Source: a virus
Direction: 5' to 3' (one strand)
IMG/VR virus record: IMGVR_UViG_3300022752_000030
Location: 32,001 to 96,000 of that record
Length of the DNA stretch: 64,000 bases
The notes below the pieces were generated by a model. That model saw only the letters and a list, made by a program, of their open reading frames with translations, had not been told where the DNA came from and ran no database searches. Every line of letters begins with the position of its first letter. Position 1 is the stretch's first letter. The position numbers were made by a program, and so were the translations under genes. Positions 3,975-32,601 of this stretch are shown piece after piece.

Positions 3975-4289
3975 TCAACTGTCTGTTCCAACTTCATCAA
4001 TTATTTCCTGTTCAACATTAGAAGACATTATTTCAACCAAAAGATCGCCGATATAATTTTTAAAATCGGTATCTTTTTCTAAAATTTTTGGTTTTTGTTT
4101 TTCAGATTCTAACACATCATATGCGAAAAGTAAATATACTTGATCGCCTTCTTCCTTAAATTTAACTTTTCCATATTTGAAAACTACACTTTTATATGGA
4201 CCTTCCAAAAATTTGATGTGTACGGAAGATTTATCATTTTTTGGGTAAATATAACAATAATCGACACCTTCAATCATTTTAAGTTCCAT
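3975..4289 (-). CDS. possible gp40-like head vertex assembly chaperone
   Basis: Lies between uvsX and gp41, as gp40 does in T4; FKYGKV and YIGDLLVEIM motifs. Confidence 0.45.
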   Translation of the reverse strand: MELKMIEGVDYCYIYPKNDKSSVHIKFLEGPYKSVVFKYGKVKFKEEGDQVYLLFAYDVLESEKQKPKILEKDTDFKNYIGDLLVEIMSSNVEQEIIDEVGTDS

Positions 4290-5349
4290 TCATTGTTTCA
4301 ACTTCAAAAGTTTCTTCAATTTCACCTTGAAGTATTTCGGATGATGCTACTCGATATTTATTTTCAACGAATTGGCGAAATCCAGCATCTGTGAGAATTG
4401 GCATCCAAAAATCTTTCGTATCAGTTTCTTTGATTCGATATTTCTTTTCAGAAACTTCACCCGTAGTCACATTTACACGTGAGTACCAACCATTGCTTGG
4501 CTTGATAACATGACCAGATTCAATTGCAAGATCAAGTAAGCCAGACCACCTGCTGATGCCACCATCAAAAGATACAGTAACAGGTATTTTAGATTTCTCT
4601 TTGACATATCTAGATTTTTCCACGTTAATGATAAAGTTGTAACCAACAATTTCTGTACCTTCTTTTTCTTGTTGACGACCAATAATGAAAATGTTATCTG
4701 CCGAATAATAAGAACCAGTGCCGCCACCAACAATATCTTTAGGAAACATTCCTATTTCTTTGTAAGTGTGATTCACTACAATCATAGGAATATCTTTCAA
4801 AGATAGATGTGGTGTCACCATTCTAAACAAAGATTTAACTTGTTTAGCTCTAGACATGTCAGCAACAGATTTTTGATCTAAAGCATCTTCAACTTCTTTC
4901 TTCGATGCAAGATTTCCAATAGAGTCAATAACAATAATCAACTTGTCACCACGTTCAAGATTTGTAAGTTGATTCATCACATCAAATTTTAATTGTTCAA
5001 TGTCCATGAGTGGAGTGTGCAATACACGTTCAGAATCAATACCAAAAGAATTAAAATAAGATTGTGGAGTTCCAAATTCAGAATCGTAAAAAAGAAGTGC
5101 GGCATCTGCATATTTTTCAAGATAAGATTTCGCCATCAACAACGAAAAAGCTGTCTTGAAGTGTTTAGAAGGACCTGCCCACATAGTAAGTCCTGGTGTC
5201 AATCCACCATCTAATTTACCAGACAATGCCACATTGATGATTGGCACAGACGTTTGAATCATATCTTTATTATTAAAGAATTTAGATTTCGATAGAATGG
5301 CAGAATCTTTAATACTACTATTCTTTTTAATTTTATCAAGTATGCTCAT
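4279..5349 (-). CDS. uvsX: RecA-like recombinase UvsX
   Basis: AGPSKHFKT, FYDSEFG, DSIGNLAS, GGGTG. Confidence 0.97.
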   Translation of the reverse strand: MSILDKIKKNSSIKDSAILSKSKFFNNKDMIQTSVPIINVALSGKLDGGLTPGLTMWAGPSKHFKTAFSLLMAKSYLEKYADAALLFYDSEFGTPQSYFNSFGIDSERVLHTPLMDIEQLKFDVMNQLTNLERGDKLIIVIDSIGNLASKKEVEDALDQKSVADMSRAKQVKSLFRMVTPHLSLKDIPMIVVNHTYKEIGMFPKDIVGGGTGSYYSADNIFIIGRQQEKEGTEIVGYNFIINVEKSRYVKEKSKIPVTVSFDGGISRWSGLLDLAIESGHVIKPSNGWYSRVNVTTGEVSEKKYRIKETDTKDFWMPILTDAGFRQFVENKYRVASSEILQGEIEETFEVETMNGT

Positions 5350-6320
5350 TTAGTATTTTCCTTTTCATGAAACGAATATGTGGCGTTATAATCATAGTTA
5401 GGTTCCAACTTTAAATCTGTTTTAGTTTTCCTTTTAGGAAATCCTCTTTTTTTTATTGTTGGTTCTTCTTCAACTTGAGGTTCTTCAACAACAACAATAT
5501 TTTCTTTTTGTATTTCAACACTTTCTTCTTTTGGTGTGATTTTACCGTCGCCATCTGTCGGCTCACTTTTTTTCTCAGATTGAACCTTTAGTGACATATT
5601 TGCAGCTATCAATAATAACACAGCTAGAGGATCAAATACAACCATTATTAATATGATTACCAGTCTAACTGCCTTATCTATGATGTCTTTTTCATTTGAT
5701 CCATATATTAGTTCTGCGACATATTTTATAGGCCCAAAATCAGACTCCGCTTTTTGTAATTCTATTGACATTGGAGTTTTTTCTTCAACCAAGTCATTGA
5801 TTTTTTTCTGTGAGATTTCAATTTCACTGCTTAATCTACTTCTCTCTTTTTGTTGAGATTTTCTTATTGCAACAGATTTATCCGCACCTTTTTCATCTGT
5901 ACTTCTTGCCATGATCTGATCAACGGCTTCGTTTAATTGATTAAGTGTTTTTCTATTATTCTCAATATTCTCTTTTTCTACTTTTATCTTTTCATCGATC
6001 AATAATATTTTATTTGCTAATGGAGCAAAATCTGAAGAATGTTCTAAGTGTGTTTTTGAAAGATAACCAAAAATACCCATAGATGTAATAATCATCAAAA
6101 CAATACAGGCTGAGGTAAGATAGGTTCTCATCAATAATGGACATTGTTTCCAATTTCTGTATAACCAAGATACGGTAACAAGTTTTGATGCCTCAAGCAC
6201 AGAACCCATAATTACTATGGGTAAAAATGATCCAGGAAATATTTGAGCAAGTCCAATAACAGAATAATAAGCAGCAACAGCCGATAAAGCAATTGCTGTA
6301 AAAAAAGTTATGAGATTCAT
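5346..6320 (-). CDS. membrane protein with long coiled coil
   Basis: Three N-terminal hydrophobic segments, a coiled coil, GPIKYVAE, and a C-terminal TM segment (VFDPLAV). Confidence 0.7.
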   Translation of the reverse strand: MNLITFFTAIALSAVAAYYSVIGLAQIFPGSFLPIVIMGSVLEASKLVTVSWLYRNWKQCPLLMRTYLTSACIVLMIITSMGIFGYLSKTHLEHSSDFAPLANKILLIDEKIKVEKENIENNRKTLNQLNEAVDQIMARSTDEKGADKSVAIRKSQQKERSRLSSEIEISQKKINDLVEEKTPMSIELQKAESDFGPIKYVAELIYGSNEKDIIDKAVRLVIILIMVVFDPLAVLLLIAANMSLKVQSEKKSEPTDGDGKITPKEESVEIQKENIVVVEEPQVEEEPTIKKRGFPKRKTKTDLKLEPNYDYNATYSFHEKENTK

Positions 6321-7672
6321 CCGAAAAAGTCCTCTAGTGAATTAATTTTTTCTGTTTTCCAATTCATACAATCTAATATGATACGAATTGGTTCTAAAAA
6401 TGATTTTTCAAATTGTAAATCATAATCGATAAAACTGTCAAGATTAAATTCTTTTGGTAATCTTGAAGGATAAGATATTACGGTATCTTTAAATGGATTA
6501 GGCATTTTCAGATAAGTAAATTTGATCTTTTCACCCTCTTGTATCAAAGGATATTTTTTAGTCAAATTCAGTTGTTTAATATTGTGATTATATAAAATAG
6601 CACCCTTAACATGAATAGGTGTTCCTTTTTTATATAGTAAAACCGAATCTGAATAAGTCTTCAATCCGTTCAATCCTCTCGGAAAAGATATATCTTCGGG
6701 TGGTAATTTTTTGAACGACTCTTTAAAATTTGCAATAAAATCTTGTACGTCAGATTCAGTACCAGTCATCATCAATTTAATGACATCTTTCATTTTTTCA
6801 CGAATCGATGATGGTGTTGAAGATTTGATCATTTCTAGACCCATAACCTTCATCTGAGGCTCGTTATACCGAACACCCTCATTATCATAAACATTTAAAA
6901 TATATCTCTTTTTAGCTGTCCAAACACCTTTGTTAGCTAACGCTTCACGTTTCATTTGCATTTTCTGATCATATGCATTTACGTATGTGGCCAGTTCTTG
7001 ATAAGACTTGTCGATATATGGTTGAATCTTATCTTCACAAACACGATCCATAAAGTCAATTATTTTTTTCGTATTTGTGGTATCATTATTGAACTTTTTG
7101 ACCAGAGAACCTAATTTTAGATAAATCGAATCCGTATCTGATGCAATCACATAATCATCATTTGTCTGTAAAAGTTTGTTCATGTAATCATTCAGTTTGC
7201 CTTCAATCCAACGAATTGATAACTGACCAGCAAGCGTAACAGCAAGCGCTTGTCTTAAATCATAAAAACGGAAATATTGTGATCCAAGAGCACCATAAGC
7301 TGAGTTAAGTGATACTTTTTTTGCTAGTTGAAGATTATTATATCGAGCAATCTTTTTTTCTAATTCAAATTTCTTACTTTCATCTTTTTCAACCTCATAT
7401 TCTTTTTTGGCCTGAATCATCATTTTTTTGAACTTACTTCTATCAACATACATTTCTTCCATCATCTTTGGTAAGAAACCTTGAATGTCTGTTCTGAACA
7501 ACTGGCCATTGGGTGTGATGGTACAATGCATTGGACCAAGAAAAGAAGTATCGACAGTTTTTTTCAACATACTTTCGACACTAACTTTATCAATTTCTCG
7601 TTCAAATAATTCTATAGCCCGAAGTTCTTCTTGTAGTTCTTCAGTTGTTAATTTTTTTACATTACGAAACAT
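6317..7672 (-). CDS. gp43: DNA polymerase gp43, C-terminal part (fingers/palm/thumb)
   Basis: PolB motif B KVSLNSAYG, motif C SDTDS, KKRY, KSSTP; clamp-binding SLEDFFG; own RBS (GAAGGT). Confidence 0.95.
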   Translation of the reverse strand: MFRNVKKLTTEELQEELRAIELFEREIDKVSVESMLKKTVDTSFLGPMHCTITPNGQLFRTDIQGFLPKMMEEMYVDRSKFKKMMIQAKKEYEVEKDESKKFELEKKIARYNNLQLAKKVSLNSAYGALGSQYFRFYDLRQALAVTLAGQLSIRWIEGKLNDYMNKLLQTNDDYVIASDTDSIYLKLGSLVKKFNNDTTNTKKIIDFMDRVCEDKIQPYIDKSYQELATYVNAYDQKMQMKREALANKGVWTAKKRYILNVYDNEGVRYNEPQMKVMGLEMIKSSTPSSIREKMKDVIKLMMTGTESDVQDFIANFKESFKKLPPEDISFPRGLNGLKTYSDSVLLYKKGTPIHVKGAILYNHNIKQLNLTKKYPLIQEGEKIKFTYLKMPNPFKDTVISYPSRLPKEFNLDSFIDYDLQFEKSFLEPIRIILDCMNWKTEKINSLEDFFG

Positions 7673-7709
7673 TCTATACCTTCATTTTAACCTTTTTTTG
7701 ATGCATCAT

Positions 7710-8243
7710 TTATTTCATCCACTTTTTTCTATTTTCAGTTTTACTCAATATTTGTAAATTGTCTGGATGATGTAAGCCGCCTTTTGCAATAGGTTGTATG
7801 TGGTCCACTTCATGTCCTTTAGGACAAATCAAATAATATTCCTGTAATTTTTTCTTTTCTTCTTTACTTAATTTTGGAGTTTGATTACGTATTCTTGCTC
7901 TCCGTCTTGCAGCAATTTCATTCCTAATTCTACGTTTATGATCTTCACCCAAATATTTACTCTTATTTGAGCAATAATAACTGCAATATTTTGAATTGTA
8001 CTTTTCACTTTCAGTTCTAAATTTTTGAGTTTGATATTCTTTACCGCAACATAGACATTTCAACAAAGATTTTCTCTCTTTATTTTTACATTCCAAATGA
8101 AAAGGTTTTTTAATATCAAATTTTTGTAAACACTTTTTAATATTAGCATCCGAACAACCAAAGTATTCAGCAACCTCACTTCTTCTCATATTTTTGTTAA
8201 TAAATAAATCGTAAAGTTTTTCTTTAGTGATATTATACTTCAT
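7710..8243 (-). mobile_element. free-standing HNH homing endonuclease inserted in gp43
   Basis: N-terminal HTH, CxxC Zn finger, EVDHIQP..KGGLH...NLQIL...EN..K. Confidence 0.9.
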
Positions 8244-8251
8244 TTATTTTC

Positions 8252-8280
8252 CTAATAAGTAACCGCACCCACTTATTTAG
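8252..8280 (-). promoter_or_regulatory. late promoter (CTAAATA) plus RBS-sequestering hairpin for the HNH gene
   Basis: Minus strand CTAAATAAGT-GGGTGCGGTT-ACTTATTAGGA; AATAAGT pairs with ACTTATT and the stem runs into the TAGGA RBS. Confidence 0.65.
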
Positions 8281-9568
8281 TATTTCTTAATTTTAACTCC
8301 TCAATTACTTTTCTCTTTCTTTCTGAAATATAACTTCTTTCAACAAGATTTTCTGGACTTATGGAGTATTGCATCATCAAATGTGGATAAAGTGAATTCA
8401 AGTCAAAACTTGCAACATATTCATGTAGACCAACTTGAACTTCTTTAACATAAGCACCCTCGAATGCTGAATCTTTTTCTTTGATGATTCTTGGAGGTAC
8501 AATAATATTTTGTTGTAACAAATATGAATATGTTAGAGAATCCCACATGCGTGTTTGAGCAAACACGTCTTCATAATTTGATTTTGTATCATACGCAAGA
8601 GTTAAAGCCAATTCAATCAGTTTTAACTTGTCTTCTAAACGTAAAATTAATTGCACGTCTTTGATGTTATACTCAATAAATTTTTGATAATTTAATTTAT
8701 ACAACTGATGCAGGTTTTCATATTCATCATATGAAATTTTACCTTCACCCAATTCAACGTTTGCAATATTATCAAGTCGATATGATTCTTGTGATTTTCC
8801 ACCCGGCGCATACCACTTATAAAGTTCAATATAATCGAGTGATGCGACACCAACAAGATCATAAGCAATCAATGGTCTTCCATTGATAACAGTTTTTCTT
8901 TCAAAAATAAAATTCCATGGTGACAGTTTTTTTGAACTGTCTTCACCTAAGATTTTTTTAAATCGATTGACAAGATATGGTATATCAAAAAACTTTGTAT
9001 TCCAACCAGTAATTACATCAGGACATTTAATTGACCAGACATCTATAAATTTTTTACACAATGTCCACTCATCACGACATTTGACATATGTAACATTTTC
9101 ATCGTTATTGTCAAATTCACCACAACCAAAAACATATGTGTGCCCGTTAATGTAAGTGATAGTGATAGCGGTAATGGGTTCGTTAGCTTCATAAGGATCA
9201 GGAAATCCATTTTCAGATCCAACTTCAATATCAACTACTGCAACCAAGACTTTATCTTGGTCCCAGTCAACCATACCAGAATGTTGTTCAGAAATAAATG
9301 CATATTCGAAACGAGAATTGCCGTGTATTACTGGAGCTCCAGATACATCCTCAAATTTTTTGATGTATTCTCTGGCTTCGTAAATCGTTTCGAATGTTTT
9401 CTTGTCGAGATAATTACCATCCAAATTTGTGTACTGTGTTACATTTTTGGATGGCAAATAAAGAGAAGGAGAGTAGTCAATTTTTTGTTTGACTCTTTTG
9501 CCGTCTAGAATTCCTCGATACAATATCTTACCACTAAGAGATTGTACGTTAGTATAAAAACTTGTCAT
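8273..9568 (-). CDS. gp43: DNA polymerase gp43, N-terminal part (N-domain, 3'-5' exonuclease, motif A)
   Basis: DIEV, GWNTKFFD, YNIKD exonuclease motifs; motif A SFDLNSLYP; stop about 30 codons later. Confidence 0.95.
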   Translation of the reverse strand: MTSFYTNVQSLSGKILYRGILDGKRVKQKIDYSPSLYLPSKNVTQYTNLDGNYLDKKTFETIYEAREYIKKFEDVSGAPVIHGNSRFEYAFISEQHSGMVDWDQDKVLVAVVDIEVGSENGFPDPYEANEPITAITITYINGHTYVFGCGEFDNNDENVTYVKCRDEWTLCKKFIDVWSIKCPDVITGWNTKFFDIPYLVNRFKKILGEDSSKKLSPWNFIFERKTVINGRPLIAYDLVGVASLDYIELYKWYAPGGKSQESYRLDNIANVELGEGKISYDEYENLHQLYKLNYQKFIEYNIKDVQLILRLEDKLKLIELALTLAYDTKSNYEDVFAQTRMWDSLTYSYLLQQNIIVPPRIIKEKDSAFEGAYVKEVQVGLHEYVASFDLNSLYPHLMMQYSISPENLVERSYISERKRKVIEELKLRNTK

Positions 9569-9879
9569 TAACCTGTGATGATTTCTTTTGCTTGTGGAAG
9601 AATAATACCCGAACCAAAAATTGAATTGTAATTGTTAATAAAATCTTGTGCGGGTGTATAGTAATACACTACATGTTTTTTGGCAATAGAAATTGTTTGA
9701 TCTTTTTGTTGTTCCGCGTGAATCGGAAAAGGAGAGAATCCTACATTTGGTTGTCCATTTTGACCTCGAACAATTGCAATTCCTACAGGATTAATTAATA
9801 CAAATTCTGATTCTGATTCGGACTCAATTTCACTAACGAGTTCTTCACCTGTAATTAATTTAAATGCTTGAATTTTCAT
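9568..9879 (-). CDS. conserved hypothetical protein (Sm-like fold)
   Basis: KLITGEEL...FGSGI pattern seen upstream of gp43 in T4-like phages. Confidence 0.65.
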   Translation of the reverse strand: MKIQAFKLITGEELVSEIESESESEFVLINPVGIAIVRGQNGQPNVGFSPFPIHAEQQKDQTISIAKKHVVYYYTPAQDFINNYNSIFGSGIILPQAKEIITG

Positions 9880-9967
9880 TTTTCGCTCCTATAAAACAAA
9901 CATTATAACATAAAATAATTTTTTGTAAAGTGTGTTTTACACTATATACCATTATAAGGAGAAAAAA

Positions 9968-10252
9968 ATGAAAAAACTATTTTCATTTATTATGTTGATT
10001 CCTTTATTATCTTTCGGACAAACTCAGAGTATTGAAGTTCAAATAACAACGACATGTTATAAACTAGATCAAATAAAAGATACATTAATAAAATTTGATG
10101 AAAAATTGATATTGAATTATCCTAATGATTTAACAAATAAAAAAACAAATATACAGCTTTTTACGAATAAAGAAACTGGTACTTGGACTTTATTTGAATT
10201 AATTGATGGATTGTATTGTTTATTAGGTACAGGCACAGTTTCAACACTATAA
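9968..10252 (+). CDS. small exported hypothetical protein
   Basis: AAGGAG RBS before ATG at 9968; signal-peptide-like MKKLFSFIMLIPLLSFG; two Cys. Confidence 0.7.
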   Translation: MKKLFSFIMLIPLLSFGQTQSIEVQITTTCYKLDQIKDTLIKFDEKLILNYPNDLTNKKTNIQLFTNKETGTWTLFELIDGLYCLLGTGTVSTL

Positions 10253-31254: not shown

Positions 31255-32601
31255 TTACATCAAGTTACGTACACCGAAAATACGGTAGTAAACGTTGCTA
31301 CGTGCGTTCAATGCACCGTTGCCAGTTGTAAGACCTGTAGCGAATGGGTTTGCAACCATGCCGTAACGAGTCTTGAATCCAATTTTTGGTTGGAATGTGA
31401 ACTGGTCAACTGCACGAACCATTTGCAATGGAACGTATGGGCAGTAGAACAAACCAGCATCATATGGTGATGTACCCTTGTAGCCTACAGTTACCAATTC
31501 TTGGTTGGATGTGTAACCACCAAAATATGGATCGATGTAAACTTTGATACGACCGTGCAACATACCAGCAAATGTATTGCCTGTATCGTCAATTTGCAAA
31601 TCAGATTGCAAAGCAGGTGTATAAGAAAGAACACCAGCCATAGCCATAGCGGAAGCAACGTCTGAAGAAACGATCAAAACGTTACCTTTACCTCTACGTG
31701 TTTGTTTTGCAATAACGTTAGCATCACGTTCGATTTGGAAAATCAAACCTTTGAAACGTTCTACAGACCAACGACCGTTAGAGTCGGTGTCTAAATCGAA
31801 AGTACCTTGTGTAGTTGTACCATACATAGCACCTTTAACAGCACATGTGTAAATTGTACGAATAACTTCACGGTTAATTTCAGCCAAAATTTCTGTAGAA
31901 AGAATGTTTGACAACTCTGTTTCAGCGTCAAGACCGTGAACTGCTTTCAAGTCTTGTGCAAGTTCAAGAGAGTACTCTGCTTTCAAAGCACGTGATTGTG
32001 CAGTAACAGTAACTTTCTCGATGGAGAAAGCCATTTGATTGAACAAACCAGTTGATGTGTCAGCACCAAGACCTTCAGCAACGCTTGTTTGCATGCCGAT
32101 ACCAGTTGTAAATGAGTTAGCAGTAAAATCAGCAACAGGATTTGTAGAAATGTCTGTTGTGTTGTTACCAGCAAAACCGTACAAGTTTGTAGAAGAACCA
32201 GCACCAGAGAAGATTGTGTTAGCTTCGTTGAAGAAAGCTTCGTTTGTGTTACTAGGTGCACCAGATTGTGCGCTGTAACGAGCACGCATTGCAAAAATCA
32301 AACCTGTTGGGCCTGTCATTGGCTGAACGCCAGCAACATCATAAGCAATCAAGTTTGGCAATGAACGGCGAACCAAGCTAATTAAGATTGGGTCATAGTT
32401 CTGAACGCCACCAGCTACGTTAGTTGGTGTAGCAGAGTATGTAGTTTCGTTCAACTGTTGAGCAGCTTCACGCATTTCTCTTTGTTGGTTTTCCAAAACA
32501 AGAGCTGTAACAGCCTTTTTGTATGGATCCTTAATAGCTTCAAGTTCTGGATGCTCCAAAACTGGTTGCCATTTTTTTTGTAGTTCTTCGGTTAGATACA
32601 T
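31255..32601 (-). CDS. gp23: major capsid protein
   Basis: GVQPMTGPTGLIFAMR, ELAQDLKAVHGLDAE, FQPKIGFKTRYG. Confidence 0.99.
   Translation of the reverse strand: MYLTEELQKKWQPVLEHPELEAIKDPYKKAVTALVLENQQREMREAAQQLNETTYSATPTNVAGGVQNYDPILISLVRRSLPNLIAYDVAGVQPMTGPTGLIFAMRARYSAQSGAPSNTNEAFFNEANTIFSGAGSSTNLYGFAGNNTTDISTNPVADFTANSFTTGIGMQTSVAEGLGADTSTGLFNQMAFSIEKVTVTAQSRALKAEYSLELAQDLKAVHGLDAETELSNILSTEILAEINREVIRTIYTCAVKGAMYGTTTQGTFDLDTDSNGRWSVERFKGLIFQIERDANVIAKQTRRGKGNVLIVSSDVASAMAMAGVLSYTPALQSDLQIDDTGNTFAGMLHGRIKVYIDPYFGGYTSNQELVTVGYKGTSPYDAGLFYCPYVPLQMVRAVDQFTFQPKIGFKTRYGMVANPFATGLTTGNGALNARSNVYYRIFGVRNLM

Follow-up and report, generated by a model that had tools for sequence, protein, structure and literature searches.

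A T4-like phage DNA polymerase gene divided by an HNH endonuclease gene, with short helical termini that are likely to aid reassembly of its two products

Fragmented replication enzymes and a divided gp43 gene

There is only one case, the ribonucleotide reductase of Aeromonas phage Aeh1 (NrdA-a/MobE/NrdA-b; Friedrich 2007), in which experiments have explained how an enzyme cut by an inserted endonuclease gene stays functional. In this case, nrdA is split by the HNH-family gene mobE, and the two products carry a basic C-terminal tail (isoelectric point (pI) of 10.4) and an acidic N-terminal tail (pI 3.8), respectively (Crona et al. 2011, PMC3045599). Both tails originated with the insertion, and enzyme activity requires them; they are dispensable for heterodimer formation and needed for a higher-order step, and the authors proposed such tails as a general neutraliser of gene fragmentation, with similar tails being present on T4 gp39 and gp60 (PMC3045599). 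Here we describe a locus that poses the same problem in a replicative DNA polymerase. It lies in a window of 64,000 nucleotides (nt; the whole stretch of DNA that was analyzed, positions 32,001 to 96,000 of IMG/VR virus record IMGVR_UViG_3300022752_000030), in which the gp43 gene, encoding a T4-type family-B polymerase (PolB), is divided by an HNH gene into gp43A and gp43B, with motif A set apart from motifs B and C.

Divided gp43 genes (43A/43B) have been described in Aeromonas phages 44RR and 25, and the two products of phage 25 reportedly co-purify and have activity (Petrov, Ratnayaka and Karam 2010, as summarised in PMC2988022). Phage 25 resembles the present locus in having a T4-type PolB in two cistrons with a free-standing endonuclease gene between them, as well as a basic 43A tail and an acidic 43B head; however, its endonuclease has a GIY-YIG-type N-terminus rather than an HNH domain, and its 43B contains a group I intron. 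The GenBank record of phage 25 places its break at the fingers tip (43A of 498 amino acids (aa)), about 70 residues past the present one, which falls about 20 residues after motif A, and the present locus is therefore not a split gp43 of the phage 25/44RR type. An earlier note on this DNA, made from its letters alone, had cited split gp43 and endonuclease-split nrdA as known from other T4-like phages, which is right but imprecise, as phage 25 is broken elsewhere and by a GIY-YIG-type gene.

Two further systems offer partial likenesses. T4 gp39, MobA and gp60 represent an endonuclease-linked split of an essential replication enzyme with a similar distribution of tail charge (PMC3045599), but the enzyme is a topoisomerase, not a polymerase, and gene 60 also shows translational bypass. 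Genes fractured by split inteins (Dassa et al. 2009, PMC2677866) share with this locus the order of N-part, hairpin, endonuclease gene and C-part as well as an origin in environmental phage-like DNA, whereas they rely on trans-splicing inteins, no domains or junction residues of which are present here. The 'DNA polymerase x3' of metaG-MbCM1 was rejected as a comparable split because it comes from a metagenome assembly full of frameshifts. T7-like cyanophages have a 'split DNA polymerase' as well (PMC12695635), but it was rejected as a parallel because it belongs to a different enzyme family. No paper on this particular gp43 split was found within an incomplete coverage of the literature.

Given the precedents of Aeh1 nrdA and of phage 25/44RR gp43, the locus is a further example of a described kind, and the principle of tail-mediated assembly is already published for Aeh1 nrdA/mobE. 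As in Aeh1, a free-standing HNH-family gene splits an essential enzyme between active-site elements without splicing, and the polarity is the same, with a basic C-terminal tail upstream and an acidic N-terminal tail downstream; terminal tails of opposite charge that are absent from unsplit homologues were also found here, one divergent locus (L099, see below) being the exception. The differences are that the enzyme is a DNA polymerase instead of a ribonucleotide reductase, that Aeh1 is a single known instance whereas many split and unsplit alleles here show the tails moving with the endonuclease, and that the tail here partly replaces a native helix. The locus contributes a new break point, between motifs A and B, a different endonuclease family for gp43, and evidence at population scale that tail and head are transferred together with the endonuclease.

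The explanation that we consider likely overall combines a homing HNH cassette, separately translated halves, selected helices and non-covalent reassembly. The cassette interrupts the palm some 20 residues beyond motif A, at a variable linker on the surface. Its parts are, in order, a basic version of the native helix, about six further residues with a stop codon, a hairpin-containing spacer of 29 nt with a ribosome-binding site (RBS), the HNH gene, the restart of gp43B, an acidic amphipathic helix of 29 residues and a diverged copy of the native helix that comes next. The two proteins would be translated separately and would assemble non-covalently into an active polymerase with a composite active site, as we infer by analogy with phage 25 gp43A/B and Aeh1 NrdA, and the HNH protein would presumably cleave unsplit alleles. 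The cassette-borne helices are kept by selection, most likely as an antiparallel helical clasp stabilising the cut palm, which would render the insertion nearly neutral while the element spreads by homing among related phages. In this arrangement the short helical end-pieces probably help the halves to reassemble.

The locus also provides a natural experiment, with roughly a hundred split alleles, many near-identical unsplit ones, an HNH-deleted derivative and three-piece variants. With such rich natural variation, the origin of the tails with the element, the pairing of the tails and the recognition by the endonuclease become testable.

The break point, the absence of splicing and the mobile cassette

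The studied record (111 kb, with a completeness of only about 67%) represents an uncultured T4-like myovirus whose gp43 is 46-57% identical in amino-acid sequence to that of the nearest named relatives, which are cyanophage, pelagiphage and Methylophilales-phage genomes. gp43A, the HNH gene and gp43B follow one another in this order on the minus strand (Table 1). In Pfam searches, DNA_pol_B_exo1 (PF03104) and the start of DNA_pol_B (PF00136) were found in gp43A and the rest of DNA_pol_B in gp43B. Comparison with the solved RB69 and T4 gp43 structures by phmmer gave E-values of 2e-64 and 2e-69 with both halves collinear, the gp43A alignment reaching about RB69 residue 431 and the gp43B alignment beginning at about T4 residue 452, which places motif A on gp43A and motifs B and C together with the thumb on gp43B. 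All hallmarks of a T4-type family-B polymerase, including Exo I-III, motif A (DxxSLYPS), motif B (KxxxNSxYG), motif C (DTDS) and KKRY, are present, and the exonuclease and motif A residues of gp43A as well as the catalytic residues of gp43B were invariant in 71 split homologues. The division of gp43 into two genes by an HNH gene, and the location of motif A and motifs B/C on different polypeptides, had both been read from the letters in the earlier note; the former was confirmed by the open reading frames (ORFs), the Pfam matches and recurrence in relatives, and the latter by the motif positions.

It could be argued that such a locus is a dead pseudogene or an assembly artefact, considering that the record is an incomplete metagenome-derived contig. 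This explanation is hardly credible, since numerous independent contigs and some 100 protein clusters share the layout and keep every catalytic residue unchanged, the genes show purifying selection, and no other family-B polymerase was found in the 111 kb, an exclusion that is partial given the completeness of the record. Misassembly, which the earlier note had listed among the findings that could overturn its reading, is excluded because no fewer than 13 independent viral contigs, together with about 85 protein clusters of the N-part and 99 of the C-part, show the same layout.

The break was defined on the 80 viral contigs most similar to gp43B, of which 78 have an uninterrupted polymerase and two (L006 and L007) carry the same HNH gene at the same place. 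Alignment to intact gp43 proteins, as proposed earlier, located it exactly with the help of these 78 unsplit close relatives, in which the junction reads ..ISPETLIEPxNYTDEMRxILSQG before and VSVDKLLKK.VDTS..TITPNG after the break point (native helix, EPENYTDEMRxILSQG). Residues 410-425 of gp43A (ERSYISERKRKVIEEL) occupy the place of this native helix and are basic where it is acidic, and only about six residues (KLRNTK, 426-431) are truly added. In gp43B, the first 29 residues have no counterpart in the unsplit relatives, and the native sequence is back at VSVE. The N-part tail had been described as a basic helical extension; it is indeed basic and predicted to be helical, but most of it is a re-charged replacement of the native helix. 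The 29-residue head is absent from unsplit homologues, whereas tail residues 410-425 have a native counterpart there.

The break region is a palm stretch of variable length among T4-like polymerases: cyanophage gp43 lacks 11 residues here, and the RB69 and T4 proteins are shorter still. An alignment with cyanophage gp43 had at one point suggested that the tail and the head are duplicates of one native segment, an idea that was dropped because the closer unsplit relatives show that cyanophages merely lack the 11-residue helix. Direct comparison of tail and head revealed no significant similarity at either the protein or the DNA level.

Restoration of a single polypeptide by RNA splicing, protein splicing or translational bypass deserves consideration because T4-like phages have introns and the gene 60 bypass, and because split inteins flank endonuclease genes in metagenomes (PMC2677866). 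At this locus, its probability appears negligible. Rfam gave no match at E<=1 in positions 6000-10000, and the non-coding sequence is limited to spacers of 29 and 37 nt, which cannot hold a group I intron core. No intein or Hint domain was matched by Pfam in the proteins of the locus, and the Cys/Ser and His-Asn residues of intein junctions are absent, each tail having Glu or Asp as its first residue and each head Lys as its last, followed by Val.

In addition, a natural derivative was observed in L114 (2764-5450, minus strand), which has lost its HNH gene through a deletion that preserves the frame. The usual gp43A tail is followed directly by the last nine codons of HNH, and the stop codon then shares TAATG with the start of gp43B. 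The head is complete, and two codons before its ATG the reading frame of gp43B is closed. Since nothing remains there that could act as an intron or intein, splicing is ruled out, and since the split has been kept without HNH, the enzyme evidently functions as two unjoined pieces that need no endonuclease gene. No further HNH-deleted derivative was detected in a metagenome scan. The statement that the locus has no intein and that its spacers are too short for a group I intron was thus upheld by Pfam, Rfam, the spacer lengths and L114.

The product of the inserted gene matched Pfam HNH at 22.5 bits (cut-off of 21.4) and the HNH endonuclease family phrog_1271 at 2.5e-13, and its C-terminal part contains the catalytic motif ..EVDHIQPIAKGG..H..DNLQ..EN. 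All copies that are at least 79% identical, from 13 further loci, lie between gp43A and gp43B, and they were often more similar (79-89%) than the flanking polymerase halves (66-84%). The gene is under strong purifying selection, with a ratio of non-synonymous to synonymous differences (pN/pS) of 0.13.

In a quick IQ-TREE search based on the N-terminal 385 residues (tail excluded), the eight split alleles required eight state changes, and well-supported branches force at least five of these; split L006, for instance, grouped with unsplit L022 and L036. Fixed differences between all split and all unsplit alleles were found in one block only, from ISPE(T>N) to TPNGQ(F>L), and nowhere else, indicating that tail, spacer, HNH gene, head and the diverged next helix move as one unit. 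Such site-specific occupancy together with sporadic presence that is independent of phylogeny is what is expected of a homing endonuclease. A more distant member was found in L099, where a 50%-identical HNH gene occupies the same site of a cyanophage-type polymerase that is only 46% identical; the L099 head is clearly homologous (MWKDVRKMTREEIEDELKAL..) and its tail is amphipathic. The homologous HNH gene and head show that the cassette family crosses polymerase lineages.

Terminal helices and reassembly of the two halves

Both end-pieces are well conserved in a set of about 85 gp43A-sized and 99 gp43B-sized proteins or clusters (63-80% identity). The tails end almost constantly in ..ENLVERSYIxxRKxKLIxELKxRN(TK) and the heads start almost constantly with MFRNVKELTTEELQKELQAIELFEQEIGK; the head is exactly 29 residues long in 92 of the 99 variants, with hydrophobic and acidic positions kept. 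The mean net charge was +3.4 for tails (n=85) and -3.4 for heads (n=99), compared with -2.1 for the replaced native segment. At the studied locus, the tail has a net charge of +4 and the head of -2 over 29 residues (-5 over residues 8-29), and 11 of 12 same-contig pairs combine a tail of +2 to +6 with a head of -2 to -5. The charge-complementary extensions proposed in the earlier note are therefore found in nearly all close relatives, whereas complementarity fails in the distant L099. The C-part was also found, as had been claimed, to have its own RBS (GAAGGT) and to start with an acidic helix.

AlphaFold2 predicted a helix at residues 411-430 of gp43A and another at residues 10-29 of gp43B (predicted local distance difference test (pLDDT) values of 83-89). 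In the model of gp43A alone, the orphan palm piece (362-414) was left unfolded, which is expected if it needs the other half. Prediction of a complex between full-length gp43A and head residues 1-32 gave a score of 0.06 (mark, 0.32) and counts neither way.

The pN/pS values, about 0.47 for the tail and 0.29-0.31 for the head, resemble those of the adjoining polymerase sequence and point to purifying selection on both end-pieces. These values bear on the idea that tail and head are mere passengers, either hitch-hiking by co-conversion or overlapping with signals for HNH expression or immunity (hairpin, RBS, altered target). It is true that pS dips beside the HNH gene (0.35-0.54 vs 0.58-0.78), that the gp43A stop lies within a conserved hairpin and that the fixed differences coincide with the presumed target region. 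Nevertheless, pN/pS is well under 1 in both pieces, the length and the hydrophobic and acidic positions of the head are conserved as described above, and L114 keeps tail and head intact after HNH loss, all of which makes this explanation quite improbable.

A more serious alternative, although still rather unlikely in our view, is that the halves reassemble and the helices matter, but each helix packs on the polymerase body or a partner (DNA, clamp or the other palm part) or simply replaces the native helix. It agrees with the location of gp43A residues 410-425 at the place of the native helix, with the non-complementary charges of L099 and with the behaviour of the Aeh1 NrdA tails, which are unneeded for the heterodimer and needed at a higher-order step (PMC3045599). 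It accounts less well for the basic tail and acidic head, a polarity seen in 11 of the 12 same-contig pairs, at a second site of splitting (see below) and in phage 25, or for the fact that both amphipathic helices start or end where the same loop was cut. In geometric terms, two helices that leave the ends of one cut loop and are amphipathic with opposite charge speak for an antiparallel clasp. Direct contact between tail and head is offered tentatively, as a step that may well be right but that we stop short of favouring.

Several points weigh against a clasp of oppositely charged helices or limit the evidence for it. The tail of L099, which has a homologous cassette, has a charge of about -1 and its head of about +1, showing that charge complementarity is not universal; together with the action of the Aeh1 tails beyond fragment pairing, this exception keeps alternatives alive. 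No covariation between tail and head was detected among the few paired loci, the pN/pS values are approximate since they come from ungapped comparisons of short segments, and a second family-B polymerase is excluded only in part. As for the two-gene composite polymerase with a helical zipper that had been envisaged earlier, the separate pieces and the conserved, selected and mostly oppositely charged helices agree with it, whereas its N-terminal 'extension' turned out to be largely a replacement.

These results are also relevant to annotation, as 'DNA polymerase' fragments of about 430 aa and 450 aa in T4-like metagenomic phages would be real subunits rather than errors. Furthermore, the locus may suggest split points and clasps for engineered two-piece family-B polymerases.

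Table 1. Positions in the window of the divided gp43 locus and its parts
Feature	Positions	Strand	Remarks
gp43A	8273..9568	-	431 aa; N-terminal domain, 3'-5' exonuclease domain, first palm part including motif A
Motif A, DLNSLYPH	8381-8404	-	gp43A residues 389-396
gp43A C-terminal tail, residues 410-431	8276..8341	-	re-charged helix 410-425 and added 426-431
Hairpin over the gp43A stop codon, reaching the HNH RBS	8251..8280	-	in the 29-nt spacer
Free-standing HNH endonuclease gene, presumed homing endonuclease	7710..8243	-	177 aa; Pfam, PHROG
37-nt spacer with 11-codon mini-ORF (7674-7709) and GAAGGT RBS for gp43B	7673..7709	-	
gp43B	6317..7672	-	451 aa; remaining palm, fingers, thumb; motifs B and C
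gp43B N-terminal head, 29 extra residues	7586..7672	-	acidic amphipathic helix; absent from unsplit relatives
Motif B, KKVSLNSAYG	7292-7321	-	gp43B residues 118-127
Motif C, DTDS	7130-7138	-	gp43B residues 179-182
Co-transferred cassette	7499..8350 (about)	-	sole block of fixed differences; L006 vs L022 DNA comparison

Expression signals, a second split site and a frameshift site

Each of the two spacers, of 29 nt (8244-8272) and 37 nt, contains an RBS-like purine run before the next ATG. The 5' arm of the hairpin in the first spacer includes the gp43A stop and its 3' arm touches the HNH RBS, and the ATAAGT/ACTTAT arms are present in all split loci; with a folding free energy (dG) of only -7 kcal/mol and a z-score of -1.6, however, the hairpin is weak on its own. 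Comparable hairpins have been reported upstream of endonuclease genes in fractured genes (PMC2677866) and of mobE (PMC3045599). Most relatives lack the 37-nt spacer and have a TAATG in which the stop codon of HNH and the start codon of gp43B overlap. Longer ORFs were observed in the gap between HNH and gp43B in some loci, of about 60 codons in L006 (2648-2844) and L093 (4034-4218), and L099 has a 57-aa Cys-rich ORF with two CxxC pairs between the HNH stop and the gp43B start (4054-4227). The small ORFs end at or beside the gp43B ATG, which suggests translational coupling. A good sigma-70-like promoter was predicted at 9929-9902, upstream of a small ORF that precedes gp43A, and scanning for promoters and terminators gave nothing above chance inside the locus.

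Downstream, a 324-aa ORF (5346-6320, minus strand), whose product is charged in the middle and has hydrophobic segments at the N-terminus and near the C-terminus, overlaps the gp43B stop by 4 nt and is conserved at the same position in the relative L108 (5025-5936). No credible Pfam family was matched by it. In cyanophages, only a small ORF lies between gp43 and uvsX.

A second split hotspot was observed at the fingers tip in other members of the same phage clade (L095 and L108-L111), with positions in L108 (7130-8620, minus strand), L111 (4021-5069, minus strand) and L095 (4034-5260). It is equivalent to the site in Aeromonas phage 25. The N-terminal proteins are about 496-503 aa in length and end in ..EYENVLTELEKRGL, and the heads of the C-terminal proteins begin with M..(S/T)xxEEL. 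The gap is occupied by a GIY-YIG-like homing endonuclease gene in L111 (phrog_314, 1e-35) and by a 258-aa ORF in L095 with weak matches to phrog_503 (a PHROG of unknown function), HNH and DNA-binding families, and is only about 75 nt long in L108. L095 (2173-6251) has a three-piece polymerase, in which the HNH split after motif A is combined with the fingers-tip split with its second endonuclease-like gene and with a frameshift site in motif B.

It is conceivable, though we would not bet on it, that the HNH element is a portable 'cut-and-clasp' module that brings its own heterodimerising helices, invades polymerases as distant as 46% identity and leaves a working two-piece enzyme behind, a design (basic helix end, acidic (S/T)xxEEL start) that would recur at the fingers hotspot. 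If this is true, endonuclease-borne protein clasps would be a general, transferable neutraliser of gene fragmentation.

Finally, a candidate programmed +1 frameshift was observed in motif B of L095 (5218-5271) and L108 (6964-6993, minus strand), and also in L109, L110 and L118-L122. The site, GCGAAAAAGGTGTC(A/T)CTT TAA C, was found in eight viral contigs with at least six distinct sequences. Frame 0 stops at ..AKKVSL*, and the +1 frame reads on as NSAYGALGSQYF.., which gives back KKVSLNSAYG. The site matches that of release factor 2 (RF2, prfB) in having a Shine-Dalgarno-like AAGGTG, a 3-nt spacer and CUU U-stop C. Its synonymous positions are variable in unshifted relatives and invariant in shifted ones, and this candidate is potentially more novel than the HNH-linked split itself.

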